DNA of 64,000 bases from Octopus sinensis (GCF_006345805.1 NC_043006.1:49724001-49788000), one strand, 5' to 3'; counted from the first letter of the stretch, positions 7,292 through 61,432 are shown. The notes: generated from the letters alone by a model not told the origin. A program made the numbers and translations.

Positions 7292-7335
<44 letters not shown>

Positions 7336-7438
7336 AATGTGAGGATAAAATTCTTTTCGAAAAAAAATATTTTCTCGAAAAAAATCTTATCAATGGCCAG
7401 CATATTAAAAAATACCTTTAACGGTTAAATTTATAAAC

Positions 7439-8127
7439 AATTCATAAATGAGGGCAAAGGAAAAAAATTCTAATGCCAAATATGCCGAAAACTTGGACAT
7501 ATTGTCCATTAACCATATAATTTTTTCACAATACGCACGCTACTCAAAAAAAGGCTGACAGAAATTTCTAAAAAATTCCATTATTACCATATCGGACCGA
7601 TTTCAGAGTTAGCTACTAAGAGCCCTCTCTTCGTCAGTAATACATGTGGCAAAAGAAATAAATGAGATACTTACTCATACCCATGGAAGAAGCAAATACT
7701 AAGTCACAGGCACAACTAAGTACCCCAAATACATCCAAAATAGAAATACTCCAGCCCATTCGAGGCACGTGCGATTTGAACTGAGGCTCTCACAGAGTGA
7801 GTTAGTTAGTTCGGGCTGGAGTATTTCTATTTTGGATGTATTTGGGGTACTTAGTTGTGCCTGTGACTTAGTATTTGCTTCTTCCATGGGTATGAGTAAG
7901 TATCTCATTTATTTCTTTTGCCACATGTATCACTGACGAAGAGAGGGCTCTTAGTAGCTAACTCTGAAATCGGTCCGATATGGTAATAATGGAATTTTTT
8001 AGAAATTTCTGTCAGCCTTTTTTCGAGTAGCGTGCGTATTGTGAAAAAATTATATGGTTAATGGACAATATGTCCAATTTTTCGGCATATTTGGCATTAT
8101 AATTTTTTTCCTTTGCCCTCATTTATG

Positions 8128-8131
<4 letters not shown>
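7439..8131. repeat. Near-perfect inverted repeat (~318-bp arms, ~55-bp spacer), inverted pLTR pair
   Basis: 7439-7757 is the reverse complement of 7813-8131 with only a few substitutions; the element lies within (TA)n. Confidence 0.95.
7928..7985 (+). ncRNA. Type I hammerhead ribozyme motif (mirror copy at 7585-7642 on minus)
   Basis: TATCA-CTGACGA-AGAG...CTCT-GAAA-TCGGTCCGA-TA-TGGTA: stem I TATCA/TGGTA, quasi-palindromic stem III ATCGGTCCGAT, AUA cleavage triplet. Confidence 0.8.
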
Positions 8132-35596: not shown

Positions 35597-37564
35597 TATA
35601 TATAGATATATATAATACAGTGGAGTATAAATTCGAGATATCCCCAAAACACATCGACGTTGTCATAGCCTTAGTTAATTTTATGTATTTTATCTTTTTT
35701 TATTGAACATCTTGTGATGTATACCACCAGTTTTAAGTGAATTTTAAGTACATCTGTGCGGGTTGTCTCTTTCTCTCTCGCTCTCTGTCTATCTATTTAA
35801 TTGTCTATCTATCTATCAATCTACCTACCTACCTACCTACCTACCTACGTACATACATACATACCTAACTACTTACCTATCTTTCCAACTGGCTAGCTAT
35901 GTATCTAGTCATCCCTCTGCCTGTATCTATGTATATATGTGTGGGACAGTATATATATATATATATTATCTTGACCTTTTTCGTTTTGCCAAATTTCTTG
36001 TGATTTTAAATCTTTAATATGGTCTTCTTTCAGAATATTATGTTGATCGTGTATAACTTTATTTTTCCAGTAACGGAAGTGAATCATGTCGACGCCTCAT
36101 TCTAAGTGCATGAAGGTTGAATGTTTCTGTAAATCTATCATTATACTTGTTATGCTTTCTTTAATTCTACACTCTTATTTTCTTCATAACTTCCCGCTTG
36201 ATTAAACAAATGTTTGTGTGTAAAGATAGCTGGAACTCTTTCTAGAGCTACTACCATTTATACAAGATAAATTAATTAATAGAGATATAAAATAGTTAAA
36301 AAACTTTTGTCTCATTTAAATTTCACCATAAATTATTTATAGATCTTAAGTTTCATCACTGAAAGCCTTAAATGTCACATTATGAAATTAGAGGCAATCA
36401 AATATTCTTTGGATTTCGTGCTGGGATTCACAGCTGTCACATCACCCTCTTAACATCTTCTTTTGGCATATAAGTCGGTGAAAGATAATATTCATCTCTA
36501 TTATTAGGTAGATTCAATATTTTATTTTCGTTTTTAGTAAGATTATAGTCACGTTGTACATTAGTATTTGTCACAGAATTCAATTATTAAATCAGTTATT
36601 TCATATGCTTATGGTTCTTTAATCACGTCGTTAGAAATCGTCTTAATATTACAAGGATTACTAATGTCATTAAATCGTGGTTTAAGCTTACTATTGCGTA
36701 CATATATATCTTATTTTCTTACTAATGTTGCTAAAATGAAATTGAAATATTGAATATACCTAACGATGTACAGGTATATACAAGTCTATGAATGAATTCT
36801 GCCGCATATAAAAACAATTTTTAAATCTCATTGACTAAATTTTATTTGCCCCAATATAAATATTAATAACTATTTTACTATAAATTATGATCAAAATACC
36901 ACATGCAACAGAAAATCTAATAACCAATATTATTACTGCAGCAAGAAATATAATTTTATACCATTTATAATAACCCAAGTTTCAAAAGTAATAAAAGTCC
37001 CTATGATATTTCAAATATTGATAATTTCCAATCTATATATACAATACATTTGTGCCTTTCTATAATTCAAATACTAAAGCAAGGAGGGAATATGCCGTCA
37101 TTCATCATAATATTTCATAGAAAAGTAATGGATGAAATGGAAAAGGAATATTACCTGTTGTAACGTTCCATTTGTAAGATCTATAAAAATGGAAATTGCA
37201 TACTTATTCTATAAAATTCTCGGCGACAATTTTCCGCCACAACCTAAAATTACATGAATTTGGTTCGCGTTGATAATATTGCTGTTTAATTCTATTAATG
37301 CTCATTATCTCTTTCTTCTGTTTCCATTGCTACCGTTTCTCATTTTAAACTTTCTTATTATACTACGCCTATTTTAGCATCTATTATAGTAAACGACAGT
37401 CATTTAACCTTATACAAGTATTATATTAATTCCAAGGAGACCAGCAATAACTGTCCCTCTGAATAGATTACTCGTAATCGTGTAGACTATAAATGGTAAC
37501 CGCTACAATGATATATTTATAATGTATACAATAGTATCATATTTATGATAGTACAAATAGAAAT

Positions 37565-39760
37565 TATGGTTTCAAATTTTGGCACAAGGACAGCAAGTTC
37601 AGGGGAGGAGGTAAGTCGATTACATCGACCCCAATGCTCAACTAGTACTTATTCTATTGACCCCGAAGGATGAAAGGCAAAGTCGACCTCAGCGGAATTT
37701 GAACTCAGAATGTAAAAACAGACAAACTACTTAGCAGCATTTTCTCCAGCATACTAACAATTCTACTAGCCCGCTGCTTTAGTACTAATAGTAATAATCC
37801 TTTCTACTAAAGGTACAAGGCCCGAAATTTGGGTAGAGGGGACTAATCGATTACATCGACCCTAGTACGCAACTGGTGCTTAATTTGTCGCCTCAAAAGG
37901 ATGAAAGGTAAAGTCGACTTCGGCGGAATTTGAACTCAGAACGTAAAGATGGACGAAATACTTATCTCTTTACTACCCACAGAAAGGGCAAACAAGGACA
38001 GAAACGGATTAAGTCGATATATATCGACCCCAGTGCGTAACTGGTACTTATTTAATCGACCCCAAAAGGATAAAAGGCAAAGTCGACTTCGGAGGAATTT
38101 GAACTCAGAACGTAGCGGCAGACGAAACACCGCTAAGCATTTCATCTGGTGAGTGCTAATAGTTCCTTCTCGAGCCATGCCAGGCTCATGAGGGCCGATA
38201 TCCTCCAGTTTCAGTGGCGTAGATATTCCCCACCTGGATGGGACGCCGCTCCGTCGCAGGATTACTCATTTTTGCCAGTTAAGTGGACTGAAGTAACGTG
38301 AAATGAAGTGTTTTGCTCAAGAACACAACACACCGCCCGGTCCAGGAATCGAAACCACAACCATACGACCATGAGTTCAACACCCTAACCACTAAGCCAC
38401 GCGCCTCCACGAGTACTAATAGTAATAATACTATAAATGATGGTTTCAAATTTTTGCAGAATCCCAGCAGTTTCGTGGGAGGGGGCAAGTCGATTACATG
38501 AACATGAGTGCTCAACCAGTACTCATTTTATTGACCCGAAAGGATGAAATGTAAAGTTGATCTCGGAAGAATTTGAACTCAAAATGTAACTGGCAATGAC
38601 CAGCAATTTCAGGGGATGAGATAGGTCGATTACAACGATCCCAATGTTCAACTGATACTTATTTCATCGATCCGAAAGGATGAAAGGCGGAATTTGAACT
38701 CAGAATGCTTGATGGACAAAATGCTACTTAGCAATTTTCCCGGTGTATCAATGATTCCACCAGCTTGCCGCATTGCAACTGTAACTATATTAGTTTCGAA
38801 GTTTGGCACAACGCCATCAATTTCAGGAGAGGGAATAAGTCGATTACATCACCCACCCCCCGCCAATACTTAACTGGTACTTATTTTATCGACTCCAAAG
38901 TTGACCTCGGTAAAATTTGAACAGCTGTAATAAAATTGATAATGATAACAAGTTGGGTTGTAGTAACGATTGTAATAATCCTTCTACTGGAGGCACAAGG
39001 TCTCATATTTGTGGAGTTGGGACTTGTAGATTATATCGACCCCAGCGTTTCACTGGTACTCATTTTATCGACCTCGAAAGGATGAAAAGCAAAGTCGACC
39101 TCGGCGAAATTTGGATTCAGAACGTAGCGACGTTCTGAAATACAGCTAAGCATTTCGTCCAGCGCGCTAACGATTCTTCCAGCTCACCGCCTTAGTAACG
39201 ATTATAATAATGATAATAGTTACAATATTAATAATAGAAGTACAAACAATCAAAAGAAAAACGTAGCATAGCTATTTTTTGTACTATTTGTAGAGTAATG
39301 AGAATAAAAGCAAATAATTCTAATAATAAAATTTCTTCTTATATCAATAATAGGAATTTTCAAGGCGGCGAGCTGGCAGAAACGTTAGCACGCCGGGCGA
39401 AATGCTTAGCGGTATTTCGTCTGCCGCTACGTTCTGAGTTCAAATTCCACCAAGGTCGACTTTGCCTTTCATCCTTTCGGGGTCGATTAAATAAGTACCA
39501 GTTACGCCCTGGGGTCGATATATATCGACTTAATCCGTGTGCCTGTCTTTGTTTGTCTTCTCTGTGTTTAGCCCCTTGTGGGTAGTAAAGAGATAAGTAT
39601 TTCGTCTGCCGCTAATTTCTGAATTCAAATTCCACCGAGGTCGACTTTGCCTTTCATCCTTTCGGAGTTGATAAATTAGTACCAGTGGCATACTGGGGTG
39701 GATCTAATCGACTGGCCCCCCTCCCCCAAAATTTGGGACCTTGTGCCTAGAGTAGAAATA
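37565..39760. mobile_element. Dense cluster of about ten full or partial SINEs, partly nested
   Basis: Repeated GAAAGGATGAAAGGCAAAGTCGACCTCGGCGGAATTTGAACTCAG on minus (37565-39195) and plus (39361-39760). One different SINE at 38164-38410 has TSD GAGT(G/A)CTAATAGT. Confidence 0.85.
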
Positions 39761-40386
39761 AATAATAATAATTTTCTACCTCTGCCTTTTTCTTTTCTAA
39801 ACCGTGATACAAATTTATGTAATTGGAGCCTGAGAGAAAATTGGCCTCTTAATAGTCACTGCAACTTAATAATCCCTTCTAATTTGCCAACTACAACGTA
39901 ATAATGAAGCTTATATAATTACTATTTAAAACCCATAATTCTTTTATATTCTGTATTCGTTTCAATTCAAATTTGAAACTAAGATATTAAATACACTTCC
40001 ATAAATATTCTGAAAATACCCTAAAGAGCGCTACATCTCTTGGTAAACATATCTTCAATCTGAAAACAAAGATATTTTCCAACTTCTCTTAACATGGAAC
40101 CAATGATAGCCTTAATTCACAAATAAAGAATATATATATATATATATATATATATTCATAATTAATCAATATAGGGTGGCAAAAGATTTTGTAGAATTTT
40201 TTTGCCACCAGCGGCCTAGTGGGAAAAAATTAAATAGTCATAGACCATTTTAAGTTCAACATCACAATCAAGGAACGGCCATAATAGGCCATTCACCCAC
40301 TAGAAATAACAGCCAAAAGCTTAAACCGCAAAATAACATCAATTCCGTAAACCAGGAGAAAATTAAAAAACATTTACCCTGTAATT

Positions 40387-40487
40387 TCTTATACGATGCA
40401 CCGTTTCATCTACTGTTTAATGGTAAACTAACCTGATTAAATAAATCAAGCCAATCCACACATAGGCTCTTAGATTCATCAGTAAGA
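40387..40487 (-). ncRNA. Type I hammerhead ribozyme, long helix II (array unit 1)
   Basis: TCTTA-CTGATGA-ATCTA...TAGAT-GAAAC-GGTGCATC-GTA-TAAGA. Confidence 0.85.
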
Positions 40488-40875
40488 AATAGCCAAGTCG
40501 GAACAGATATTTTTCACGAGCATTCCCGTCCCTGCCTCGGCAATATCTGACCTAAAATTTTCAAATCATCGCACTCGCGCCAAATTTATCGGCAGCATAT
40601 ATAATATAAGCCGCCGATTCCATTACGGAATTAACCAGAAAATTCATAATTAATCAATATAGGGTGGCAAAATATTTTGTAGAATTTTTTTGCCACCAGC
40701 GGCCTAGTGGGAAAAAATTAAATAGTCATAGACCATTTTTAAGTTCAACATCACAATCAAGGAACGGCCATAATAGGCCATTCACCCACTAGAAATAACA
40801 GCCAAAAGCTTAAACCGCAAAATAACATCAATTCCGTAAACCAGGAGAAAATTAAAAAACATTTACCCTGTAATT

Positions 40876-40976
40876 TCTTATACGATGCACCGTTTCATCT
40901 ACTGTTTAATGGTAAACTAACCTGATTAAATTAAATCAAGCCAATCCACCATAGGCTCTTAGATTCATCAGTAAGA
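40876..40976 (-). ncRNA. Type I hammerhead ribozyme, long helix II (array unit 2)
   Basis: Same motif as unit 1; all core nucleotides intact. Confidence 0.88.
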
Positions 40977-41363
40977 AATAGCCAAGTCGGAACAGATATT
41001 TTTCACGAGGCATTCCCGTCCCTGCCTCGGCAATATCTGACCTAAAATTTTCAAATCATCGCACTCGCGCCAAATTTATCGGCAGCAAATAAATATAAGC
41101 CGCCGATTCCATTACGGAATTAACCAGAAAATTCATAATTAATCAATATAGGGTGGCAAAATATTTTGTAGAATTTTTTTGCCACCAGCGGCCTAGTGGG
41201 AAAAAATTAAATAGTCATAGACCATTTTTAAGTTCAACATCACAATCAAGGAACGGCCATAATAGGCCATTCACCCACTAGAAATAACAGCCAAAAGCTT
41301 AAACCGCAAAATAACATCAATTCCGTAAACCAGGAGAAAATAAAAAACATTTAGCCTGTAATT

Positions 41364-41464
41364 TCTTAATACGATGCACCGTTTCATCTACTGTTTAAGG
41401 GTAAACTACCTGATTAAATTAAATCAAGCCAATCCACCATAGGCCCTTAGATTCATCAGTAAGA
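41364..41464 (-). ncRNA. Type I hammerhead ribozyme (array unit 3)
   Basis: Same motif, with 1-nt indels in stem I and helix II. Confidence 0.75.
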
Positions 41465-41820
41465 AATAGCCAAGTCGGAACAGATATTTTTCACGAGGCA
41501 TTCCCGTCCCTGCCTCGGCAATATCTGACCTAAAATTTTCAAATCATAGCATCGCACTCGCGATGTTGAACTTAAAAATGGTCTATGACTATTTAATTTT
41601 TTCCACTAGCCGCTGGTGGCAAAAAAATTCTACAAAATTTTTGCCACCCTATATTGATTAATTATGAATTTTCTGATTAATTCCGTAATGGAATCGGCGG
41701 CTTATATTATTTGCTGCCGATAAATTTGGCGCGAGTGGCGATGATTGAAAATTTTAGGTCAGATATTGCCGAGGCGGACGGGAATGCCTCGTGAAAAATA
41801 TCTGTTCCGACTTGGCTATT

Positions 41821-41920
41821 TCTTACTGATGAATCTAAGGGCCTATGGTGGATTGGCTTGATTTAATTTAATCAGGTTAGTTTACCATTAAACAGTGATG
41901 AAACGGTGCATCGTATAAGA
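41821..41920 (+). ncRNA. Type I hammerhead ribozyme (inverted unit)
   Basis: TCTTACTGATGAATC...GATGAAACGGTGCATCGTATAAGA read directly on plus. Confidence 0.85.
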
Positions 41921-42047
41921 CATTTACAGGGTAATGTTTTTTAATTTTCTCCTGGTTTACGGAATTGATGTTATTTTGCGGTTTAAGCTTTTGGCTGTTA
42001 TTTCTAGTGGGTGAATGGCCTATTATGGCCGTTCCTTGATTGTGATG

Positions 42048-42114
<67 letters not shown>

Positions 42115-42496
42115 GTGTGCATGAACCTTTTTTGTGCGAGCGTGTATGCGGGTATGTATATTTTTCGGCGAATGTGTGGGTGAGCATGTGTGTTTCAAGT
42201 GAGGGTGGATGAGTATATATTTATAGACGCATGTACGTGAGTTTGCGGGCGCGAATGTGTAGGTATGGACATGTGTGTTTACGCGAATATTATGAACATT
42301 TTACTCCCTTACCTTTAATCCCTACCCTCACTCTTTTGTCTTAATAACGGTCAATCACACAGTAATTTCCCTTCGTTTAACGGTCATTTACATAGCACTT
42401 TTACGATGGCCGGATAACGGAAGAGATGGCGACGTGGGTTTTATCATGACTACCGAATAATTGCCACATATTATAGTTACAGAATATATCTTTACA

Positions 42497-42537
<41 letters not shown>

Positions 42538-42538
42538 T

Positions 42539-42575
<37 letters not shown>

Positions 42576-42841
42576 GTATTATAAATACACAGAGTAGCAG
42601 AAGGTCGTGCTAAGATACAAGACGTGTTAGAAAAAATACGAGTCAAACATGCTCTTATCACATGAAATTAATAGTAGCGCAAAAAAATCGTATATTGTGT
42701 ATATAAAATGATATTTATCGCTCGCCAGATGGAGTTTTTGTTTGTTGATCATACCATTACGGAACAATACACTATATATTTATGTATACATACATACACA
42801 CACACATATACACGCACATACACACACATACAAACACACGC

Positions 42842-42902
<61 letters not shown>

Positions 42903-43074
42903 TATATATATTTTACCGTTTTCATCACAACAGTCCGACGAACGGAACGCGAAACTTTGAGTAGTAGTCTTGTGATAATTTTTCAGTTTTAATAAAAGCA
43001 TATTGCTCTACCCACTGTATTCGAATATCGTTTTTTCACCTTGTTTTGCACTTACGTGCACACCTGTGTTGTAC

Positions 43075-43129
<55 letters not shown>

Positions 43130-43158
43130 CATACCTACATATACATACATATATAATA

Positions 43159-43201
<43 letters not shown>

Positions 43202-43229
43202 TGTGTGTGTGTTATAATAGTGATAAATG

Positions 43230-43900
43230 TGAAAGTGAATGTTAGTGTGTCAGTGTGTCACATTTTTCAACTTTACTCCTCCGACCCACTCTCTCACTAT
43301 TCAATGACACTTCTACTATTCCCCGTGCTTTACCCCTCTCTCGCTAGTTAATGACGCTCCTATTATTCCTTATGCTTTACCCCACTCTTTCCCACTATCC
43401 AATGACTCTTCTACTGTTCTTCATTCTTGGTTTTTTCTTAATCCTAACATTTTGAAAAAATATTTCTCTAAATATTATAACTATTTCCAAACGTAATTTC
43501 CAAAATAAACATTTTGAAAAAATCTTTCTCTAAATATCAGTATCAAGTAATTGAACCACAACACGTGCTTCATGACGTTCGGAACTGAAATACGTATTGA
43601 ACTCACTCTCTCATACAATATTACTTTTCATAGCTCTCTGCCATAAAAACGTTGGATACTTAGTATTTTTTCAGATATTAATAAAATATGTCGGATCTAT
43701 TTTCATGCCGTCGGCCGTCGGAGTTATGGAAACTTAGCGCACTCCGACTGCATGAAAACAGATTCGACTAATATTATTACCTTAAAAATATTTAAAAATA
43801 CTAAATTTCAAATATTTTTGTGGTCAAATACGTTTCGAGCAATTCTAAACCTTAATTGCACTTTTAAATAGTGTTTAGCGACAGTAGTGTAATTTTCCTT
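43230..43900 (+). mobile_element. Non-coding Helitron-associated fragment
   Basis: Inverted homology to 53100-53520 and 53950-54000, which lie upstream of the Helitron Rep remnant. Confidence 0.55.
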
Positions 43901-44065
43901 CAAACTACGAAATGGAGTTTAGATACGTACTAGCTACTACAAATAATTGGTTGTACGAAAAGTAAGGCTCTACGTACATCAAAATGTCTTTAAATTAAGT
44001 GGTAACAGAAAAATTATCGTTGAACTTTTAAAAGGTAAGTTTATTGTTGCCTACGGCCAGTTATA

Positions 44066-44345
44066 TCAGATGTTGCTACACATCGCTGGTCACAATGCAC
44101 TTCGCATTGTTTTAGCCTTCAAATGACGCCACCCCACTGGCTAAGCGAGCAGGCCAACAGAAGAAAGAGTGAAAGAAAGTTGTGGCGAAAGAGTACAGCA
44201 GGGATCGCCACCACCCCCTGCCGGAGCATCGTGGAGCTTTAGGTGTTTTCACTCAATAAACACTCACAATGCCTGGTCTGGGAATCGAAACCGTGATCCT
44301 ACGACCGCGAGTCCGCTACTCTAACAACTGGGCCATTGCGCCTCC
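44066..44345 (-). mobile_element. tRNA-derived SINE (same head as 18981-19300, different tail)
   Basis: GGAGGCGCAATGGCCCAGTTGTTAG...GGTTTCGATTCCCAGACC. Confidence 0.85.
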
Positions 44346-44580
44346 ATATATATATATATATATATATATTAGTCAATTTAGGGTAGCAAAAAATTTATCG
44401 CTACCAGCGGCCTAGTGGAAAAGAGAAAATAGTCAAAGACTAAATATATAAATATAACAATTTAGGAGTGACCCTTAACAAGCCATTCGTCCACCAGAAA
44501 GAGCAGCCATAACTCACACCGCCAAGTAGTAGTGATTCAGAAATTAGGTGAAAATTTAAAAACATTTACCCTAATTCAAC

Positions 44581-44678
44581 TTTTAGACGATGCATCGTTT
44601 CTGTGTTATTAATGATTAAATTAGCTTAATTAAATTAAATTAAGCTAATCTACCATAGGTCACACTTCATCAGTAAAA
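44581..44678 (-). ncRNA. Type I hammerhead ribozyme in pLTR (second copy at 45040-45135 lacks one A of GAAA)
   Basis: TTTTA-CTGATGA-AGTGT...ACACA-GAAAC-GATGCATC-GTC-TAAAA; perfect palindrome ACGATGCATCGT; GUC triplet. Confidence 0.85.
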
Positions 44679-45319
44679 AACCTGGGAGAGACAAATATAC
44701 ACGAGGCGTCTGTATCGATGCCTCCGGAATATCTGTCTTAAAATTTTCAAGACGACGTATTCGCGCAAACTTATCAGCAGTAAATCTAAACTGCCTATTC
44801 AATCTCAGAATTATTCAGAAAATTATCAATTAGTCAATTAGGGTAGCAAAAAATTTATCGCTACCAGCGGCCTAGTGGAAAAGAGAAAATAGTCAAAGAC
44901 TAAATATATAAATATAACAATTTAGGAGTGACCCTTAACAGGCCTTCGTCCACCAGAAAGAGCAGCCATAACTCACACCGCAAAGTAGTAGTAATTCAGA
45001 AAAATTAGGTGAAAATTTAAAAACATTACCTAATTCAACTTTTAGACGATGCATCGTTCTGTGTTATTAATGATAAATTAAGCTTAATTAAATTAATTAA
45101 GCTAATCTACCATAGGTCACACTTCATCAGTAAAAAAACCTGGGAGAGACAAATATACACGAGGCGTCTGTATCGATGCCTCCGGAATATCTGTCTTAAA
45201 ATTTTCAAGACCGACGTATTCGCGCCAAACTTATCAGCAGTAAATATAAACTGCCGATTCAATCTCAGAATTATTCAGAAAATTATCAATAGTTTAGGTA
45301 GCAGGTTTCTCCCCAGGTT

Positions 45320-45412
45320 TTTTACTGATGAGTGTGACCTATGGTAGATTAGCTAATTTAATTTAATTAAGCTAATTAATCATTAATAACAGAAACGATG
45401 CATCGTCTAAAA
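45320..45412 (+). ncRNA. Type I hammerhead ribozyme immediately upstream of the PLE coding region
   Basis: TTTTACTGATGAG...GAAACGATGCATCGTCTAAAA. Confidence 0.8.
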
Positions 45413-45455
45413 GTTGAATTAGGGTAAATGTTTTTAAATTTTCACCTAATTTCTG

Positions 45456-47478
45456 ATGTAATTAAGCGTATGAGATGGAAGGTTTCTTTTTGACACAGAA
45501 GCGAACACCAAGGAAAACATTTGCTATCGGATAAAATCCAAAAAAATTCCCTCCTAGGATTAAAGGCTTGGAAGATTTCGAAGCCGACCTGCTGAAGATC
45601 ATGAGCAAAATAAAGTTTCGTAAGTCTTTTAACAATTTCCAACATAAATTGAAAAAAGATATGATCATATAAAAAGCTCCAAAGAAAAAGCACTTTTTTC
45701 GGATAAAACCAAGAACTTATACCTGGTAGATAACAGCAAATACACACAACTCTTACACAACAGCATCATTAATAATTATACTAAGGCTAGGGCACCGACA
45801 TATAACGAAATTAATAAAGAAGTAGCGTCATCGCCGCTAAACTTAAATTAGATAAAAAAATAGAAACCCTCCCCAAAAAGAGGCCTTTATTACTATTAAA
45901 GACCACAAAGAAAACTTCCTTTCCAACCCTAAATGTAGGCTTTCAACCCAGCCAAGTCAGAACTAGGGATTATTAGCAAAGAATTTTAGATAAAATAAAT
46001 ACGAAAATTAAGACCGATACTAGGCTAGTGCAATGGTCCAATAGTATAGAAGTCGTAGACTGGTTTAAAGCTATTAAAATAAGAAAAAGCGAGGTTTACA
46101 CAATTCGATATTGTTGATTTTTATGCCTCTATCTCTAAAGAACTCTAGATAAAGCCCTAATCTTCGCTAGTGACTTCATAGAAATTAGTACCAATGATAA
46201 GGATATAATCTTCTGCTAGAAAGACATTACTTTTCAGTGAGAATGCAAAGTGGGTAAAAAACACCGACACGGAGGGCGCTTTCGACGTGAGCATGGGTTC
46301 ATATGATGGGGCAGGCATCTGTGATCTAATTGGACTCTTTCTCCTAGATACCTTCGTGTAAGACATTCCCTAACGTACATTTCGCCATCTACAAAGATGA
46401 TGCCCTCGCCTTAACAGCTAATACAAATGGACCAGCACAAGATCGTTTTAGGAGGAAGGATTTATCCAGTTAATGAAACACTTCGGACTTAGTATAACTA
46501 TAGACACTAACCTGACGGTTGTAATTTCTTAGACGTTTCCTTAGATCTTAATAATAATATTTATAAGCCTTATAGGAAGCCCAATGATAGACTAAGTTAT
46601 ATTAATGTAGGTTCATGCCATCCCCCTATAGTATTCAAAAATTTAGTTAAAAATATTAGTAAGAGATTTCTAGCCTCTCATCTAATGAGAGACATCTTCA
46701 ATAGCGTTGCCCCAGTTTATAATAAAGCTTTAAAAGTAGTGGTTTTTAGCGAAAAAATAAAATATACACCTATCACAGCCCAACAATAAGGAAAAGGAAT
46801 AATAGAAATAGGAAGGTCATCTGGTTTACGCCGCCCCCTACTCACCCGAGGTGGCCTTCAATATAGGTAAATATTTCCTAGCACTGATAGATAGACATTT
46901 TCCAGTTAACCATGCTTATAGGAAACTCTTTAATAGACAACAATTTAAAAATTAGTTTTAGTTCAACTACCAATTTAAAAACATAATCATCATAACATAC
47001 AAAAAACAAAGAAGAAAACAGCTGTTCATGCAGGAATAAAGAATTGTGCCCGCTAAATGGAGCTTGCATGTCCAAGACCATCATATATGAAGCTACCGTA
47101 AACTCTATAACCACTAAAGACCACGTTTCGACGAAGAAATACGTGGGCCTGACAGAGGGTAATTTCAAGGCCAGGTTCAATAACCACACTTGAGCTTTAG
47201 GCACTGGAACAAAGAAAAGCGACACAATTATCCAATCATATTTGGTCTTTAAGAGATAAAGGTGTCGATTATAACATACAATGGAAGATTTTGGCCAATG
47301 TAAGCCCTATACTAACGGCAGCGGAAGGTGCGGTTTATGCGACATGGAGAGATGGCTTATCTGGAAAAGCAGCTTAGACCCTACCACATGTCTAAATACA
47401 AGGACAGAGCTTTTCGGATCATGCCCACATGTGACTAAATTCTGTTACGTTTTTTGGTCCCCTAAAGAAAACGGATAG
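45456..47478 (+). pseudogene. Frameshifted PLE reverse transcriptase plus C-terminal GIY-YIG endonuclease (Naiad-type)
   Basis: IKRMRWK, ITIKDHKENFLSNPKCRL, QFDIVDFYASIS, FDVSMGSYDGAGIC, YKDDAL, NFLDV, PYRKPND, SCHPP, CSCRNKELCPLNGAC, IIYEA...YVGLTEGNFKARFNNH, CGLCDME, LNTRTELFGSCPH. Confidence 0.92.
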
Positions 47479-47827
47479 AACATGCTTTCTGTGTTGTCCC
47501 AAAAGATTTTATATATTTTTATATGTTTTATATATTTTTATGTATTTTTATATAATTTTATGACGAAAAATGCGAGCGATGTATAAGTACGCAGGCAAAG
47601 CAGAGTTATAACAGAGTAATTTCCCTTCATTTTTAACGGTATTTTTTCATAACGTTTTCAAATAGCCAGATAACCGCGAAGAGATGGTGTTGTGGATTTC
47701 CACTTCGGCATCTGAAATCAGAGTTTTATCTTGACTACCGAGTAATGTAACATATTGTATAGATAAATTTCCTCTATTTACATAATATTGAGGTCTCTTT
47801 CTTTCTTTTGTTATCTTACCGTTTTAT

Positions 47828-47917
<90 letters not shown>

Positions 47918-47977
47918 CTATAATATATATTATATATATATAATATATATATACATACATATATATATTTAAACTCT

Positions 47978-48265
47978 GTAATATAATATGTGACAGTTAT
48001 TAATTATTCGGCTGCCATAATAAGAGTCCAAGTCTCGGATGTCGGGGCGGAAAACTGCTCCAGCATCTCGCCAGTTATCGAGGCAATCAAAAAAATGCTA
48101 TGAAAATGACCGATAAACAAAGGTTTTTTCCCCTCATTTAACGGTCATTTTCATAGCCTTTCTTGATTTCCTCGGTAACTGACGAGATGCCGGAGCAATT
48201 TTCCGGCCCGGCATCCGAAACTCGGAGTCTTATTATGGCAACCGAATAATTGTCACATATGTTAC
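47978..48265. repeat. ~290-bp imperfect palindrome (inverted pLTR pair); related degraded copies at 47605-47757 and 42345-42482
   Basis: Arms ATATGTGACA...GAAAATGACCG and CGGTCATTTTC...TGTCACATAT. Confidence 0.85.
48174..48234 (+). ncRNA. Type I hammerhead ribozyme, GC-rich helix II
   Basis: GGTAA-CTGACGA-GATGCCGG...CCGGCATC-C-GAAAC-TCGGA-GTC-TTATT; predicted cut after 48229. Confidence 0.82.
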
Positions 48266-48317
48266 CATTACTATTACTATTAATATGCATGCATACATAC
48301 ATACATACATACATACA

Positions 48318-48400
<83 letters not shown>

Positions 48401-50689
48401 AATATATATATATAATATATATTAATATATGTATGTATGTATATATAAATATATATAGACACTTCTATCACGCAAAAGACTACCACCATCACCCAATCTT
48501 ACGATCATCAGTACCGCTATCGCCATCACCACTACCTTTATCATGACAAAATATCTTCAGCTCTTCCATCTCGAATAAGACAATAACGCATTCGCCACTA
48601 TTTCCATTTGGTTAACATTATCTTGCAGTATTCAAATATTCAAATTTGAATTCATATATAAACAAAAGACTGTTTAAGCCTTAAGACCAAATTAATAAAT
48701 CAGTAAGGCTTCAGCCGAAATTATAACAAAAATTGGGCCCTATAAAGCGATTCTAAATATGTCCTAATGTATAGCTAAAAATGGTGTCAAGTAGCAAATG
48801 CGTATATAAATAAAAGCATTGGTTTGATGGGCACCCAAAGAAAATCTGAGGCATATCTGGCCCCGCAAATATGTCAAATATAAAGCCGTGTCGCAAAAAT
48901 GTTTGAAGTATTTGAGATAAGCACTGGAGGATCAGATGGCAAGGCTCTGAGAATGAATACTAAAGGTAGAGTTACGTTGGACATACCGAGAAAGCGATAG
49001 CCTGCGCTGTCAATTTACATCTGGTGCAAAACAGTTGTTGGTGAGCTGATAAAAAGTCTTACTTGGTGTTTGGTAGATAGTTACTGAAGATCGATCTGAA
49101 TTGCTTTGAATCGTCGAAATTTTATTTTTCCAATTAAAGAGTTAAAATAGCTTCACCATCCTAAAATATCACATTTTTGACATTTATTTTGTCTACTAGA
49201 TATGATTAATGATGACTGACATTCAATGTGAATTGAAGTATTGTCTAGTCAAGTTGTCGAGTGTCATCACTAATTAAATGTTGAAATGATGGCAATATTT
49301 GTGGTTCAGTTGCCCATTGTAAACGTTTTTAAATCATTGTTGTAGAAGAATATAAAAATAACCTCCTCTGCAAAGGCTGGTGCTAATAACAGAAAGAAAA
49401 TTACCGCAAAGCATTTGTTTGGCCGTTGAAAAAAATGGACGGATAATGGAAATATGTGGAAAGTGCGTCTTTCTAAACATTCGCCAGCGGTTTATAAAGA
49501 CTACAATCTTAGACGTCATTGTTTTATCAAGTATAAAAAAAATTGGAAAACACGAAGCAGACATTATAAAAAGAACCTTTATGAAAACAGTCATCTATTT
49601 TCGAAAGTTATGGTAATTAAATGAAAATACTTGTGTAACGCAAATTAGTGAAAAAGTTCGTGACTTAATGACAAAATTTGTCAAACTAAAATCGAAGGTG
49701 GGTTTTTAATTCGTGTTTAATTGCTGATGCATAAATTTTAATTCTAGAAAATGTCAGATCATTTTAGAATAATAATTTATGACGAAAGACAGTATCTATC
49801 CATATGAAATCTTGGCTAATGATATTCAAGTATCATCACTGAGTGTGACTCTTATTCTTATCGGCTTCAAGTAAGAAAGGACGAGTTCAATGGCATAATG
49901 AAAATCACCAAAAAATTTGTGATTTAATCGATAGTTGTAGATGAGTTAGATATAGTAAATATGGCGCAGCTAGCTATACGTGTTTGGGAGAGCAGCAAAC
50001 TTCAGTATACGTAAAGATTTACTTGCTTGGCTGTATCAAGGGAATTCTAATAACTTGACGCTACTTCACTGGGGCACAAACATATCTTAGGGGTAGAGAA
50101 GTTCGCTTCGCAAATACATGATTCAATCTCACAGCACACCTCGGGTCGACTAAAGCCTGTGTGAGAAATTCAGTTGACGGAAATTATGTAGAGGCCTGAC
50201 AGAGGGATTGTTCATAATCGTGAGTATGAGATTTAAACTGCTACCCGGTTAAACACATTCGTCTAGCAGGATGTTGTCTTTATTGCAAAACATTGTTTCA
50301 TTTGGGCCAGTATCCCTTCTGTGGATGGTTCCCTCTCTTCCTGCCATCTGTCTGCGAGGCCCTAAACAATAGTTTTTACCTCTGAGTGAACTTTTGACGT
50401 AAATAACAAAGAAAACTTTCAACGCCAAAATTGATTGACATGTTCCTCAAGAATGAACAGTGTGATAAAAATGGTAACAAATTATTTTAACTTATTAAAA
50501 ATAAGGAATTTGACAACAGAAAATTCATAGAAACTAGCTGAATCACCGCCCTCCGAGCGGTCGATTCAGATAGTGCTTGTCTAAATTCATGTTCGTAGCT
50601 TGAAAGTAAAAAGTGAAACTTACTATAATTTTCTTAAAGAATTTCCTTATAGACAACGTTGTCAGTGTATATTCCTTTCATACCTTTAT

Positions 50690-50922
50690 ACCTATTTCTT
50701 TACTACCCACAAGGGGCTAAACACAGAGAGGACAAACAAGGACAGACAAACGAATTAAGTCGATTATATCGACCCCAGTGCGTAACTGGTACTTATTTAA
50801 TCGACCCCGAAAGGATGAAAGGCAAAGTCGACCTCGGCGGAAGTTGAACTCAGAACGTAGCGGCAGACGAAATACTGCTAAGCATTTCGCCCGGCGTGCT
50901 AACGATTTTGCCAGCTCGCCGT
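50690..50922 (-). mobile_element. Young Meta-core SINE at the truncated end of the Helitron remnant
   Basis: Near-identical to 39361-39598. Confidence 0.85.
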
Positions 50923-50924
50923 GA

Positions 50925-53060
50925 GTCCAAAGCCAATATATGCACGTTGTTTCTAGGACCAAACAGGGCTTCCGTTATCTCAGTCCACTTTGGGCTGGTT
51001 GTCATAGTGATGAAGTAGTCTGGCTTTCCAAACTCTCTCACCAGAGCCATTCCAGCTTGGAAATACTCCCTGTAAAACCGAAGAGAACCAATATGTGATG
51101 GCGGAAAAATGATTTTAGACCCTACGTCATTCATGTCACCATTTGCAATAGCATCCAGAAGGCCCTGGTACTTTTCAGCCTTAAGTTGTTTCTGATGAGT
51201 TCTCAGGAAGTGTAATCGATCTTGCTCTATCTTTGCATATTGATCTACTGCCTATTGTTACATCAGACGTCTACTTTTCATTATGCCATTGAACTCGTCC
51301 TTTCTTACTTGAAGCCGATAAGAATAAGAGTCACACTCAGTGATGTTTTTGCTTCGGTCATTGTTTTTCAAGAACACATTCCAGCCAATATCCCCATAGG
51401 GAAACAGAAGTATATAATGAAGAGGGTCAGAGCTTCTATGGATTTGACTAATGTAGTCTAACTTCCTATTACTCTCTCTGTACTGAATAATATCATCCGT
51501 AGGTTTAATGTTTGGCTTATTGGTATCATCTCCCTCCATGATCGCAACAACCTCTGATGCAGTCGGTTGGTTATAGATTCTCTAATGTGATCCAGCAGGA
51601 ATAAACCGTTTGTCATGACTTATAATAATATCACCGGTAAAACATTTTCCTGTTGCAGAGTATTCCTTATTTATATTAATCGCCTGTTTAAAACTTTTGA
51701 CATATGGATTGTGCATATGCAGTACTCTCTTCAAATCTAGCAGGATGTTCTAATTAAGGTCATTATCAGCTCCTCGATGTCAACCTGTTTCTCATCTCAT
51801 TTTCAGTGTCAACGAAATATAGCTGTGCGTAGACTGCTAGTAGGAAACTTCCTATGCGGTGGTACACCTTTCCTTGAATCTTGAAAGTAGGCATAAAAGT
51901 GCTACCACCCTGTGGTTCAACTGGTGGATTATCCAGTCCAAGTGAAGCCATAGCCAGTAAATTATTGTAGTCACGAATTTTGTTCAGAAGCATTTGACCG
52001 CTTAGATTAACATCATAATACTTAGTTATTAATTCTGGGGGCTTTTTTATCTGAGGAACTTTGTCATTGCTAACTTTTCCTTTGTCACAGCAGAGGGTAA
52101 TTTTCTCAGCAACCCAGAGGTAAGCTTTCCAGTAAGGGCATGTTCTGTTAAAAATGTTTCCACAGTTGTGCAACATAAGGCTGGGTTTCGTTCTTCCTCA
52201 TGAAAATCTGCTACATCAACTTTCATAGCCATTCTCTCAGTGTCAGCTGACGAAATCTCGATTGGTATCGTGCCTGGTTGTTTGCTTGTCGCTGCTGAAT
52301 TTTTGGCAGCGATGTGCTTTCCCTAGAGCAGTGCTTTTCAAACTTTTTGCTGGAGCGGAACCCCAAGGAAACATTCCACTGGCTCGAAGAACCCCTGTGC
52401 AATAATTTAATAGTCTTATGCACACATATCTGCACAGGAGAATTAAAAATTACTGCCGATTTTAGCAGTTTTGTAACTTCTTGCGGAACCTCTGGACTGT
52501 ACTGGCGGAACCCTAGGTTGAAAACCACTGCCCTAGAGTCTTGTTTCCTCAGCCGATCAGTATTCCTCCGTGCTTCTGTGGTGTTTCCATTGCACGGCTT
52601 TTCTCTGTTCTCAGCCGATTCACATTCCTCCCTACTTCTGTTTTTCTGGTCTTTCCATTGCACGAATTTCCCGTGTTACCATCCGATTCACAGTCCTCCG
52701 TGCTTCTGAATCTTCTGGTCTTTCCATTGCACAAGCTTCCTGTCACCTCAGCCAATCTGCATTTCTCGGTGCTTCTGTCTCTTCTGGTGTTTCCATTGCT
52801 GAAATGTCTTGCATTCTCCTTCGCTTTATTTCGAGACACTGAGAAGAGCTACGTCCTTGTCTGTTTTTTTCAATTAACGCCCGTTGGCTTTGCTCAGCGA
52901 TCTTATGTGAACGAGAATTTTTTCGGGACAGGTTGTTGCCCTTTTTTTCTGGGCATAGTGTACTGATGAAAGCGTGATTATTTATGACAATTATACAGTG
53001 AAAGTTTTGAGACGATTCAGCTAGTATTTGAGCTAATTTCTCTGAACGAGAAGTTTTCAC
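50925..53060 (-). pseudogene. Helitron Rep/helicase N-terminal region, decayed
   Basis: CPYWKA...CCDKGKV, IRDYNNLLAMASLG, PTFKIQGKVYHRIGS, YAQLYFVD, DPLHYILLFPYG, FPPSHIGSLRF...FGKPDYFITMTTSPKWTEI (Rep motif 1). Imperfect ~50-70-bp coding repeats at 52560-52800. Confidence 0.92.
52329..52530. mobile_element. hAT (Charlie-like) MITE inserted in the Helitron
   Basis: Termini CAGTGCTTTTCAA / TTGAAAACCACTG; exact 8-bp TSD CCCTAGAG at 52321-52328 and 52531-52538. Confidence 0.92.
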
Positions 53061-58023: not shown

Positions 58024-61000
58024 TTACTGGCGAGTCCGTAGGTGACCGATAAGACCAATTCTTGCTTGAAAAGATCGGTCGCAGTGCGGACATCTAGTAC
58101 CGGAAGGGAGAGTCGCACGTGGTTGTTGTTGGCGCTCCTTCTGTCGTCGTCTTTTCTCCTCCAGCTCTGCAGACCTTTTCGACTCGAAAGTCGCCGTTCC
58201 CTCATGGATGGTGGTTTTCCAGAGTGGTCTGTTTTTTTGCCGTATCCTCCCAGTTAGTGAAGTCGATGTCACACTTTTTGAGGTTCGTTTTCAGGGAGTC
58301 CTTGTAGCGTTTCTTCTGGCCTCCTTTTGTACGCTTGCCGTCTTTGAGTTGAGAGTAGATCTGTTTGGGAAGTCGTTCGTCAGTCATTCTAACCACGTGG
58401 CCGCTCCATCTTAGTTGGCCTTTGATGACATAGGCTTCGATGCTGGTCATTTTTGCTTCTTGTAGCACGCTGACGTTAGTTCTTCTGTCTTCCCAGCTGA
58501 TGTTAAGGATCTTCCGAAGACAGCGTTGGTGAAATTTCTCGAGCGTTTTCAGGTGGTGATTATACGGAGTCCAGGTTTCGGATGTGTAAAGGAGGGTTGG
58601 AATAATGACTGCCCTGTACACCATGAGTTTGGTTTCGGTTCGGATGTCCCGATCAGCAAAAACTCTTGTTCAAAGCTTGCCGAAAGCTGTTCCTGCACAC
58701 TTCAGACGGTGTTGGATTTCATCGCTGAGGTCTACCTTTGCTGACAGATAGCTCCCAAGGTAGCAGAAATGGTTCACATTTTCCAGTGGAATTCCTTCGA
58801 GTTGAATCGATGGCGGGTTGTCAACACGGGCATTGGGAGGAGGTTGGTAGAGTAAGTGAGTCTTCTTGATGTTGATGCTCAGTCCAAGTTTAGTATATGC
58901 ATGATGAAAAGCATTTAGGATCTGTTGGAGGTGATCCTCTCTGTAAGCTGCTACACTGTTGTCGTCGGCATATTGGAACTCTAGCAAGCTTCGCGCCATT
59001 GTCTTTGACGTACTTTTGAGGCGAGCGAGGTTGAAAAGCTTGCCGTCCATTCTGTACGAGATCTCGATGCCAGGTGGAAGGTCATCTCGTATGATGTGCA
59101 ACACTGTCGCGATAAAGATGGTAAAGAGAGTTGGCGCTATCACGCAGCCTTGCTTTACTCCGGAGGTGACTTTAAAGGGCTCAGAACTGCCTCTGTCGGT
59201 CTGGACTCTGGCGTGCATATTGTCGTGGAGGAGTTTGAGGATCCGGATGAACTTATCTGGGCATCCATACTGGGCGAGAATATCCCAGAGGAGCTCTCGC
59301 GAGACACGATCAAAGACTTTGGATAGGTCGATAAAGGCCAAATAGAGCGGTTGGTGTTGCTCACGACATTTTTCTTGTAACTGTCGCAGCGTGAAGATCA
59401 TGTCGGTTGTGCTTCGTGATGGCCTAAAGCCGGTCTGCGTCTCAGGAAGGATCCTCTCTGACAGCATTTTGAGGCGGTTGTTCAGGATGCGTTCAAGAAT
59501 CTTCCCAGCAGTTGCTAATAAGGAAATACCCCGGTAATTTCCACACTCAGAACGATCGCCCTTTCGTTTGTAAATGGTAATGATGTTAGCATCCCTGAAG
59601 TCGGATGGTACAACTTCATTTGTCCAGATTTTGACCAAGAGTTGGTGGAGCTGGTGTTGGACAAAATCACATCCCAGTTTGTTTATCTCAGCTGGGATTC
59701 CGTCAGAACCCGCGGCTTTGTTGTTCTTCGTCGCTGTGATAGCAATTTTGACCTCTTCGAGGGATGGAATTCGAGCGAGAGAGTAATCCTTGACCTCTTT
59801 AGGAATCATGTGAAGTATGCTTTTGTCGATGGTAGCCTTGTGATTGAGGAGGCCATCGAAGTGTTCTCTCCATCTGTCTCCTATTTCTGTGTTGCTTTTC
59901 AGGATGGTCGCTCCGTCTTTACTCTTCAGAGGAGCCTGTCCATGTGTGGAAGGTCCGTATATTTCTTTCGTGGTTTTGAAGAACCCTCTGGTGTCGTTTA
60001 CATCTGCTAACTGCTGGATTTCACGAGATTTTTGTCTCCACCACTGGTTCTTCAGGGTACGGGTTGTCCTTTGAACTGCAGTTTTGTACTTTTTGAAAGA
60101 CTCTCGTTTAATGGTAGACTTTGGATCATTCTGTGAGCTGATGAAAGCTTTCCGTTTTTGGTCGATCAGTTCTTTGAGAGATTCATCATTGTCGTCGAAC
60201 CAGTCCTGGTCTTTCCTTTTCTTGCGACCGATGGTTTCTTCGCAAGCGGTGATGATGGTTTCTTTCAGCTGGTTCCAATTTTCTTCGACGAGATGATTTG
60301 GAGTCTTATTTTGAAGATTGACCTGTAGGCGCTGCTAGAAAGCGACACGAGTTTTTGGGTCTTGCAGTGCTTCGATGTTGAATTTCTTTACTCTGCTTTC
60401 CTTGCTGTGATATTTCACTTTTGGTCGGAGTTTGATTTTCATGGTGGAGGCGATGAGGCGATGATCTGTCCAGCACTCATCTGCTCCAGTGGCGGCTCTG
60501 GTGAGCAACACATCTTGCTGGTCTCGGGATCTCACGATGATATAGTCGATGAGATGCCATTTTTTAGATCTTGGATGCTGCCATGAGACCTTATATCGAT
60601 TCTTCTTGCGAAAAAGGGTGTTGGTTATTACCAAGTTACGTTCAGCACATTTGGTGAGTAGCAGAGTTCCATTGGCATTGACTTTTCCCACTCCTTCCGT
60701 TCCGATGGTTCCTGTCCAGAGTTCACGATCTCTCCCAACTCTGGCGTTGAAATCTCCCAGGAGAATGATCTTGTCGTTCTTTGGGACGGTAGAGAGAATG
60801 CTATCAAGCTGGCTGTAAAACTCTTCCTTGACTAAATCCTCCGCGTCAAGGGTGGGAGCATACGCGCTGATGATAGTTGCGTGCTGACTTTTGACAAGCT
60901 GGATTCGGAGGGTCATGAGTGGTGCGGACATTCCGATGGGCTGCTCTGTCAGTTTGGATAGGATGGTGTTTCGTATTGCAAGACCCACACCATGGATCCG

Positions 61001-61432
61001 TTGATGGTCGGGATCGTAACCTTTCCAGAAAAAGGTGTATTGACCGCCTTCTTCTCTCAGCCGGTCTTCTCCGGCTCTCCGGGTTTCACTGAGAGCTTCG
61101 ATGTCAAAATTGAATCGATGGGGTTCCAGGGCGATGATTGCAGTTCGCCTTTCGGGTCTGTCTGAGTTGGTGTTATCTATGAGAGTCCTGATATTCCAGG
61201 TCCCGAATTTCAGCGTTGCGTATCTTGATCTTGATTTTCGACCGCATGATGGTGATCCCTCTGGACGCGGTTTTCCAGACAGGCTTGGGATGAAGCAGAC
61301 TATGTTTAGGGCACCTTTTCTAGCTCCTTCCCAATTCAGGGTGAGCAGAGTGGATCCTAAACAGGGCTGCTCAGTCGTGGATACTGCTGCCGAACATCTT
61401 TCCTGCTTCTTCCGAAAGATAGAGCGACTGAA
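58024..61432 (-). pseudogene. RTE AP-endonuclease/reverse transcriptase with C-terminal C2H2 finger; two stops and one frameshift
   Basis: GTWNIRTL, ALSETR, AYAPT, GDFNARVG, WTDH, GNYRGISLL, GVKQGCVIAP, QYADD, LRWSGHVVRM, CPHC...GLIGHLR. TAG at 60335-60337, TGA at 58670-58672, extra A in an A-run near 58235. Confidence 0.93.

Follow-up and report, generated by a model that had tools for sequence, protein, structure and literature searches.

An ORF-less tandem hammerhead array in Octopus sinensis: a candidate PLE-dependent non-LTR retrozyme

The window analysed here is a stretch of 64,000 nucleotides from Octopus sinensis, with all positions counted from its first letter. At 40155-42047 it contains an array of closely similar repeat units, which we call family U. 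The sense of the three tandem units is on the minus strand, and one further unit is inverted:

40130..40154, no strand: left flank, the (TA)n target (TRF and sequence)
40155..40642, minus: unit U1, 488 bp, whose 3' end (unit position 489) adjoins (TA)n (BLAST)
40643..41131, minus: unit U2, 489 bp, the reference for unit positions (BLAST)
41132..41562, minus: unit U3, 5'-truncated, unit positions 63-489, its 5' end being the inversion junction (BLAST)
41562..42047, plus: inverted arm, unit positions 380-489 followed by 1-383 (BLAST)
42048..42113, no strand: right flank, (TA)n (42048-42085) followed by (AG)n (TRF)

The initial annotation had described this region as near-identical 488-489-bp units in tandem with one inverted copy, without an ORF, each carrying a complete type I hammerhead and set in (TA)n, and in all these respects we find the description correct. 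TRF reports a period of 489 with 2.9 copies and 98% matches at 40154-41555, and the BLAST identities to the reference unit are 98.6% for U1, 97.5% for U3 and 97% for the inverted arm, so that the units are 97-99% alike overall, with 5-8 indels against U2 in each full or near-full unit. Within a unit trimer, ORFs starting with ATG reach at most 26 aa, and the GC content of U2 is 36.6%. Both flanks are (TA)n, in which a target-site duplication is indistinguishable. Toward lower coordinates, the left arm runs through unit positions 63-489, 1-489 and 1-489, while the right arm amounts to a single monomer, circularly permuted, with 3-4 additional nt. The 5' ends of the two arms join at 41562 and their 3' ends point outward into (TA)n, the left arm ending at unit position 489 and the right arm at 383. 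Judged from the order of the units, the array is head-to-tail without a central region and has no LTR/PBS/PPT layout. A Sm-alpha-like Pol III SINE was rejected, as we found no B box in the unit and ARAGORN found no tRNA in 40000-48500; together with the two runs of at least five T that each unit contains, this points to Pol II for any transcription.

Elsewhere in the window, a cluster of at least eight short interspersed repeat copies in both orientations lies at 37549-39737, a repeat which we take to resemble an octopus SINE. A nearly intact APE-RT LINE occupies 58202-61432 (minus), its RT part being 88-89% identical to two proteins named from Octopus vulgaris and 86% identical to a mantis-shrimp protein, which as indirect, TE-based evidence makes an octopod host likely, and fragments at 50850-52197 (minus) resemble Helitron Rep/helicase by eye.

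A descriptor scan detected a type I hammerhead core with the cut triplet GUA in all four units, in line with the cut after GUA that had been expected for the array:

40392..40482, minus: U1 type I hammerhead, from C3 to the cut site, GUA (descriptor scan)
40881..40971, minus: U2 type I hammerhead, predicted cut after 40881 (descriptor scan and folding)
41370..41459, minus: U3 type I hammerhead, with a 1-nt insertion beside the cut site (descriptor scan)
41826..41915, plus: inverted-arm type I hammerhead, with stem II one nt short (descriptor scan)

The descriptor gave 10 matches in the whole window and 0-1 per block shuffle (30 shuffles, six of which had one). In U2, stem I is 8 bp long and a palindromic UGCA loop caps the 4 bp of stem III, whereas stem II begins with 5 bp and continues through a 7x7 internal loop into a 19-bp hairpin, altogether 68 nt, compared with about 4 bp in canonical and 7-8 bp in PLE minimal hammerheads (PMC4209133, in part). 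The GUA triplet lies at unit position 251, and pair 10.1-11.1 is A-U in place of the usual G-C. The 1-nt indels beside stems I and II in U3 and the inverted unit are possibly sequence errors. Rfam recognised no hammerhead in the window or in the array, even at E<=10; the long-stem-II hammerhead is an atypical form that Rfam misses, and such families may hence be undercounted. A pattern scan of metagenome contigs returned 18 loci, none of them similar to U, to the neighbouring family N or to the Hydra remnant described below, and viral contigs gave no match to the pattern. In several of the metagenome loci (L002-L018), which are unrelated to the unit, the core is hammerhead-like and its stem III strand is the same palindrome; some of these loci may be real microbial hammerheads.

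A second group of features follows to the right of the array:

44368..45290, minus: two 460-bp units of a sister family, N, 71% identical to U (TRF, BLAST)
45305..45456, plus: inverted N fragment, about unit positions 140-298, with a hammerhead, fused directly to the RT ORF (BLAST)
45457..47478, plus: frameshifted remnant of a Hydra-clade PLE RT-GIY-YIG ORF, without about the first 33 residues (motifs, homologues)
47479..47830, plus: 3' UTR belonging to the Hydra element itself, its end lying in (TA)n at 47830 (alignment)

Family N starts 2.3 kb from the array and has the same orientation as the left arm. Its 3' terminus lies in (TA)n like that of U, and its hammerhead has the same fold with GUC as the cut triplet; owing to a mismatch at the base of stem II the descriptor found none of the three N copies. 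Just 5' of stem I, N carries a pyrimidine tract followed by CAG (44670-44690 and 45305-45318), which is splice-acceptor-like and not kept in U. In the Penelope element of D. virilis an intron end maps to helix I (PMC4209133, in part).

The adjacent ORF is colinear with two 721-aa homologues (P0005 and P0006) from residue 34 on and contains RWK (45473), DKT (45702), YKDD (46390) and CxCx5C (47023), followed toward the C-terminus by GIY-YIG (47080-47154), CxxC (47329) and CxH (47422). The diagnostic set given for the Hydra clade comprises a C-terminal GIY-YIG, RWK, DKT, a CxCx5C linker, and CxxC and CxH around conserved E and N (PMC8557442, in part), and by these motifs the ORF at 45457-47478 is assigned to the Hydra clade. 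A degenerate 3' hammerhead and an end in (TA)n, both likewise expected of that clade, are present as well: the short-stem hammerhead at 47669-47730 in the 3' UTR aligns with an intact one at 48179-48229. Pfam returned nothing on all seven ORF pieces, nor on the two full-length homologues. A Naiad identity of this ORF, given in the initial annotation along with a Naiad RT as the helper, was rejected, since the endonuclease is C-terminal and the motif is DKT and not DKA.

The Hydra 3' UTR is unrelated to both hammerhead families (z 0.3 against U and -0.5 against N; no BLAST match), while it scores z 18 against short Hydra-type hammerhead relics. Such relics of the 3' UTR lie at 42354-42475, with the hammerhead partly deleted, and at 48002-48251, as an inverted pair that holds the one intact short hammerhead (plus strand). 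The N units are consequently not the pLTR of the adjacent Hydra element. Thus, of the earlier proposal that a related pLTR attached to a Naiad RT lies 2.3 kb away, the physical link stands, as 71%-identical units are indeed fused to an RT, while the RT is not a Naiad and the units are not its pLTR. The N units are joined to the Hydra ORF without intervening (TA)n, so that 44368-47830 has the appearance of a retrozyme-Hydra chimera, a single locus involving N and not U, which is suggestive of mobilisation in trans. As to its origin, we lean toward a single insertion event in which two RNAs were primed and the reverse transcriptase changed template from the Hydra RNA to that of N, rather than toward a later deletion; a microhomology deletion joining two neighbouring insertions could leave an identical chimera. 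N sequence is absent 3' of the end of the Hydra element, which argues against insertion of Hydra into an existing N array.

One unit of family U was compared with four public runs (X1, X5, X15 and X16) that consist of contigs, a comparison in which cut-site ends, strand and level are not readable. Among the 20 listed runs (8 studies) with matches, none is recorded as RNA and 14 are guessed to be so, which carries no evidence on expression. The matching contigs number 1564 in X15 and 6757 in X16, figures that are not a copy number, and 734 and 2118 of these, respectively, are at least 99% alike. By this measure family U is high-copy and partly young. It is also dispersed, as one X5 contig has a (TA)n flank unlike that of the focal locus.

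The abundance of near-identical contigs bears on the possibility of a Naiad, or of some other non-Hydra PLE, as the helper, in which case the fusion to Hydra would be a deletion junction that arose by accident. A preference for (TA)n is also seen in Octopus Naiads (PMC8557442, in part), PLEs tend to adjoin each other, and there is a single Hydra junction. Yet the Naiads of cephalopods have been characterised as remnants that lost activity long ago, and Naiads in general as lacking canonical hammerheads (PMC8557442, in part), at odds with a family that has so many contigs at least 99% alike; moreover, the sole RT physically joined to the family is Hydra. We consider a non-Hydra helper unlikely.

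Contigs that stop at unit position 382-384 enter (TA)n in X1 (1), X5 (1) and X16 (14), runs that stem from three studies, with counts taken from the 23 loose ends listed out of 115. As the end at 383 recurs in (TA)n at other loci, the right end of the array is a family-wide terminus and not a random break. Terminus 489 is the edge of the reference and thus beyond the contig comparison; the end of the sister family N is at the homologous position, likewise in (TA)n. The two termini of U are 106 nt apart. Two internal RT start sites are a biochemical signature of a PLE, and the Anolis PLE nicks and extends both target strands (PMC11167929, in part); PLE insertions are typically tandem with inverted truncated copies, and (TA)n is the Hydra target (PMC8557442, in part). 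By analogy with these systems, the layout of the array matches a two-ended PLE insertion.

A further element in the window, at 7334-8131, has hammerhead cores at 7637-7590 (minus) and 7933-7980 (plus) with a 26-nt stem II. It shows a two-arm inverted layout in (TA)n like the focal array, and a spacing of 105-106 nt separates its termini, comparable to that between 383 and 489 of family U; both long ends close with a strong hairpin. A relationship of this element to U was rejected (z -0.3).

These observations allow two other readings of the array to be weighed. The units might be the 3' ends (pLTRs) of an autonomous PLE outside the window, with the array formed by stacked 5'-truncated copies. 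PLE insertions are indeed mostly 5'-truncated partial tandems with inverted copies (PMC8557442, in part), for 24 of 57 families of Xenopus retrozymes a match to pLTRs is reported (bioRxiv 10.64898/2026.07.22.740005, in part), and only 23 of the 115 loose ends are listed. Independent truncations, however, would not yield equal unit lengths and one fixed junction, and this head-to-tail junction recurs in X16 contigs. Contigs continuing into unlike sequence number zero in X15 and X16, which is a weak argument because the contigs are short, and no Hydra hammerhead among those listed resembles that of the unit (PMC8557442, supplement, in part; motif search). This origin of the units appears quite unlikely to us. 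The other reading, a locally amplified satellite or an assembly fold-back without any retrotransposition, would fit the indel-rich units and the many ORF frameshifts, the absence of the 41562 inversion junction from the joints listed in public contigs matched to the unit, and a unit that probably arose by DNA duplication (see below). But a fold-back would mirror the left arm, and the right arm differs from it in register and in substitutions; it also stops at the terminus used by other loci, and two other elements in the window share the two-arm layout. We regard this reading as very improbable.

Two peculiarities of the public contigs deserve mention. One X1 contig, with a joint from 40869 to 41060, skips 190 nt including the whole hammerhead, and the boundary of this joint adjoins the 5-nt insertion of U3. 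An AT-AC intron was rejected as its cause, as there is just one contig and no match to what we take to be the U12 consensus. Editing as the cause of extra transitions in X5 was likewise rejected, as the excess at low depth extends to every type of transition.

Between U and N, the hammerhead fold is well kept: 97.5% of the cells pair over 23 pairs, compared with 20-51% in slid controls, two pairs being altered on both sides and seven on one side. The alignment of seven rows represents effectively two lineages, and the poorly aligned 5-bp base of stem II was left out. Among the 40 variant rows listed out of 58 from public contigs, the sole core position hit is the free N7, a weak pattern given a chance of about 0.4 that the variants avoid all 11 invariant positions. 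Twelve of the listed variants fall in paired positions, where nine keep the pair and three break it; for one of these three the compensating change is also listed.

Folding predicts that stem III of two copies forms a 12-bp duplex of -17.5 kcal/mol, against -0.2 kcal/mol for the hairpin. The predicted minimum-energy fold of the monomer sequesters the hammerhead core and lies 1.9 kcal/mol below the hammerhead fold. A circular monomer is predicted to be 60% paired, with z -6.2 and none of 40 shuffles lower; the antisense strand reaches z -5.8, so that the fold score is not strand-specific. Dimer-dependent cleavage has been described for a short palindromic helix III (PMC4209133, in part) and is the likely mode for a hammerhead of this kind. 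On the basis of these models, the array transcript would somewhat more likely than not be cleaved after GUA, as a dimer.

The substitutions shared between units carry information on the history of the array. G185 is present in all four units, while A accounts for 98-99% of the depth at this position in X15 and X16; because all units carry the rare G185, both arms come from one source. A175 is common to U1 and U2 and absent from U3, from the right arm and from nearly all public depth. A459 is common to U2 and U3, with C in U1; this position lies in a T run of an indel-rich sequence, which calls for caution. Repeated laps of one circle would not by themselves leave A175 and A459 shared in this way. 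Such sharing is expected if a 1.9-unit arm underwent an unequal-crossover duplication, or if the template was a linear multimer, and the left arm probably gained one of its units afterwards through such a DNA duplication. The left arm ran at least 1.9 laps, and the template, as read from the unit order, is continuous across the cut site, that is, an uncut multimer or a circle. The register of the right arm matches neither the cut site nor position 489. The chance of a random stop within 4 nt of a full lap is about 2%, for a single case considered post hoc; a one-lap copy of a circle would look just like this arm, which we take as a weak hint. Since the sequence across a circle's ligation junction is identical to that of read-through from an uncut tandem, a short-read back-splice test cannot discriminate between the two.

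The same observations must be held against an element of identical kind that forms no circles, with a slow or protein-gated hammerhead and uncut linear multimers as the template. The core-sequestering fold with its 1.9 kcal/mol advantage would suit this case, and the private A175 of U1 and U2 is unexpected from laps of one circle without duplication. Furthermore, hammerhead cleavage is dispensable for insertion by PAc in vitro (PMC11167929, in part), and eight of nine Xenopus retrozyme dimers showed no cleavage in vitro (bioRxiv 10.64898/2026.07.22.740005, in part). On the other hand, core and stems are kept across U and N, two families that are 29% apart, stem III is predicted to be strongly favoured in the dimer, the right arm is one monomer long within 4 nt, and circles were seen in all three animals analysed by northern blot (PMC7229834, in part). 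We judge this alternative to be a serious if somewhat doubtful competitor.

Taken together, the array is best explained, with a probability of roughly 0.68, as one insertion of a high-copy non-coding hammerhead repeat into (TA)n by a PLE RT-endonuclease acting in trans, likely of the Hydra clade. That family U is a PLE-dependent non-autonomous element seems likely; Hydra as its helper is modestly favoured, and circles in vivo, argued by analogy, we would place a little below even odds. The units would be transcribed as multimers, likely by Pol II, and cleavage after GUA would then take place, mostly in hammerhead dimers. Some of the resulting 489-nt monomer may be closed into circles by ligation, a process known from coral, mussel and axolotl. 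The PLE protein would nick both (TA)n strands and prime cDNA internally at positions 489 and 383, on a template, uncut multimer or circle, that continues across the cut site. The product would be a pair of arms that face outward and meet at their truncated 5' ends; unequal crossover would probably have supplied one of the left-arm units afterwards. The main insertion substrate of one PLE was uncut RNA (PMC11167929, in part). Against the proposed insertion stands the distance between the termini, which exceeds the PLE tail of 30-40 bp. One may go further and speculate that a Hydra protein moves an unrelated circular RNA in trans, that the neighbouring locus is a fossil of template switching, that the right arm is a single lap and that the 105-106-nt spacing is a ruler set by the protein. 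We deem this combination rather unlikely. If it were true, the helper of an animal retrozyme would be named from physical evidence, and retrozymes would be free riders and not derivatives of pLTRs.

Among known systems, the metazoan non-LTR retrozymes are closest to the array. They share with it ORF-less tandem units, a type I hammerhead per unit, few units per array, a GC content below 50%, a well-paired predicted circle and the presence of PLEs in the same genome (PMC7229834, in part). In its DNA the array has the sequence features of this class, which agrees with its initial classification as an ORF-less, PLE-dependent tandem hammerhead element of the non-LTR retrozyme kind. The unit of 489 nt is above the range of 150-450 in PMC7229834 and inside that of 51-972 in bioRxiv 10.64898/2026.07.22.740005 (both in part). 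Different are the two-armed insertion and the fixed termini in (TA)n, not described for retrozymes in the literature covered, and a unit that is unrelated to the pLTR of the PLE fused to it. The retrozyme class is already known, and a cephalopod example alone is unsurprising. We found no cephalopod retrozyme in the literature covered; the supplements of PMC7229834 and of the 2026 preprint may list some, and the main text of the O. vulgaris repeat annotation (PMC13282606) has no mention of hammerhead or ribozyme. Nor did the same literature yield a 68-nt stem II, fixed two-ended retrozyme termini or a junction with a helper of unrelated pLTR.

Hydra-clade PLEs resemble the neighbouring ORF in their diagnostic motifs, C-terminal GIY-YIG, short length, (TA)n target and 3' hammerhead, and resemble the array in their tandem and inverted insertion pattern (PMC8557442, in part). 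The array differs by its lack of an ORF, and its UGCA loop and long stem II are unlike the Hydra hammerheads listed there. Octopus bimaculoides has a (TA)n-targeting Hydra family, Hydra-1_Obim, whose hammerhead differs in sequence from the one at 47669 (PMC8557442, in part), so that the neighbouring element probably belongs to another family. PAc, the Poseidon element of Anolis, shares two internal RT start sites, extension of both target strands and an AT-rich target with the array, and is unlike it in being autonomous and in its tail of 30-40 bp in place of 106 nt (PMC11167929, in part). Non-autonomous Chlamys elements such as MRC1 are, like the array, ORF-less, multicopy, head-to-tail PLE dependants in microsatellites; in contrast to it, MRC1-type elements resemble the 3' end of their helper, and most Chlamys lack canonical hammerheads (PMC8557442, in part). 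Naiad PLEs, which are present in Octopus, share the (TA)n preference, whereas their N-terminal endonuclease, DKA and lack of a canonical hammerhead are all opposite to what the neighbouring ORF shows (PMC8557442, in part).

Retrozymes have been argued to be non-autonomous PLE derivatives (bioRxiv 10.64898/2026.07.22.740005, in part), and PLEs are the likely candidate movers of animal retrozymes (PMC7229834, PMC7761336, both in part), which according to the 2020 review show no motif that reveals the helper (PMC7761336, in part). The locus bears on both questions, the enzyme that moves animal retrozymes and the use of circles as template. Its fixed priming sites and the retrozyme-Hydra junction offer a defined RNA-protein pair, and arm lengths collected genome-wide could separate circular from linear templates. 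In this way the array adds clues about the helper to the known non-LTR retrozymes.
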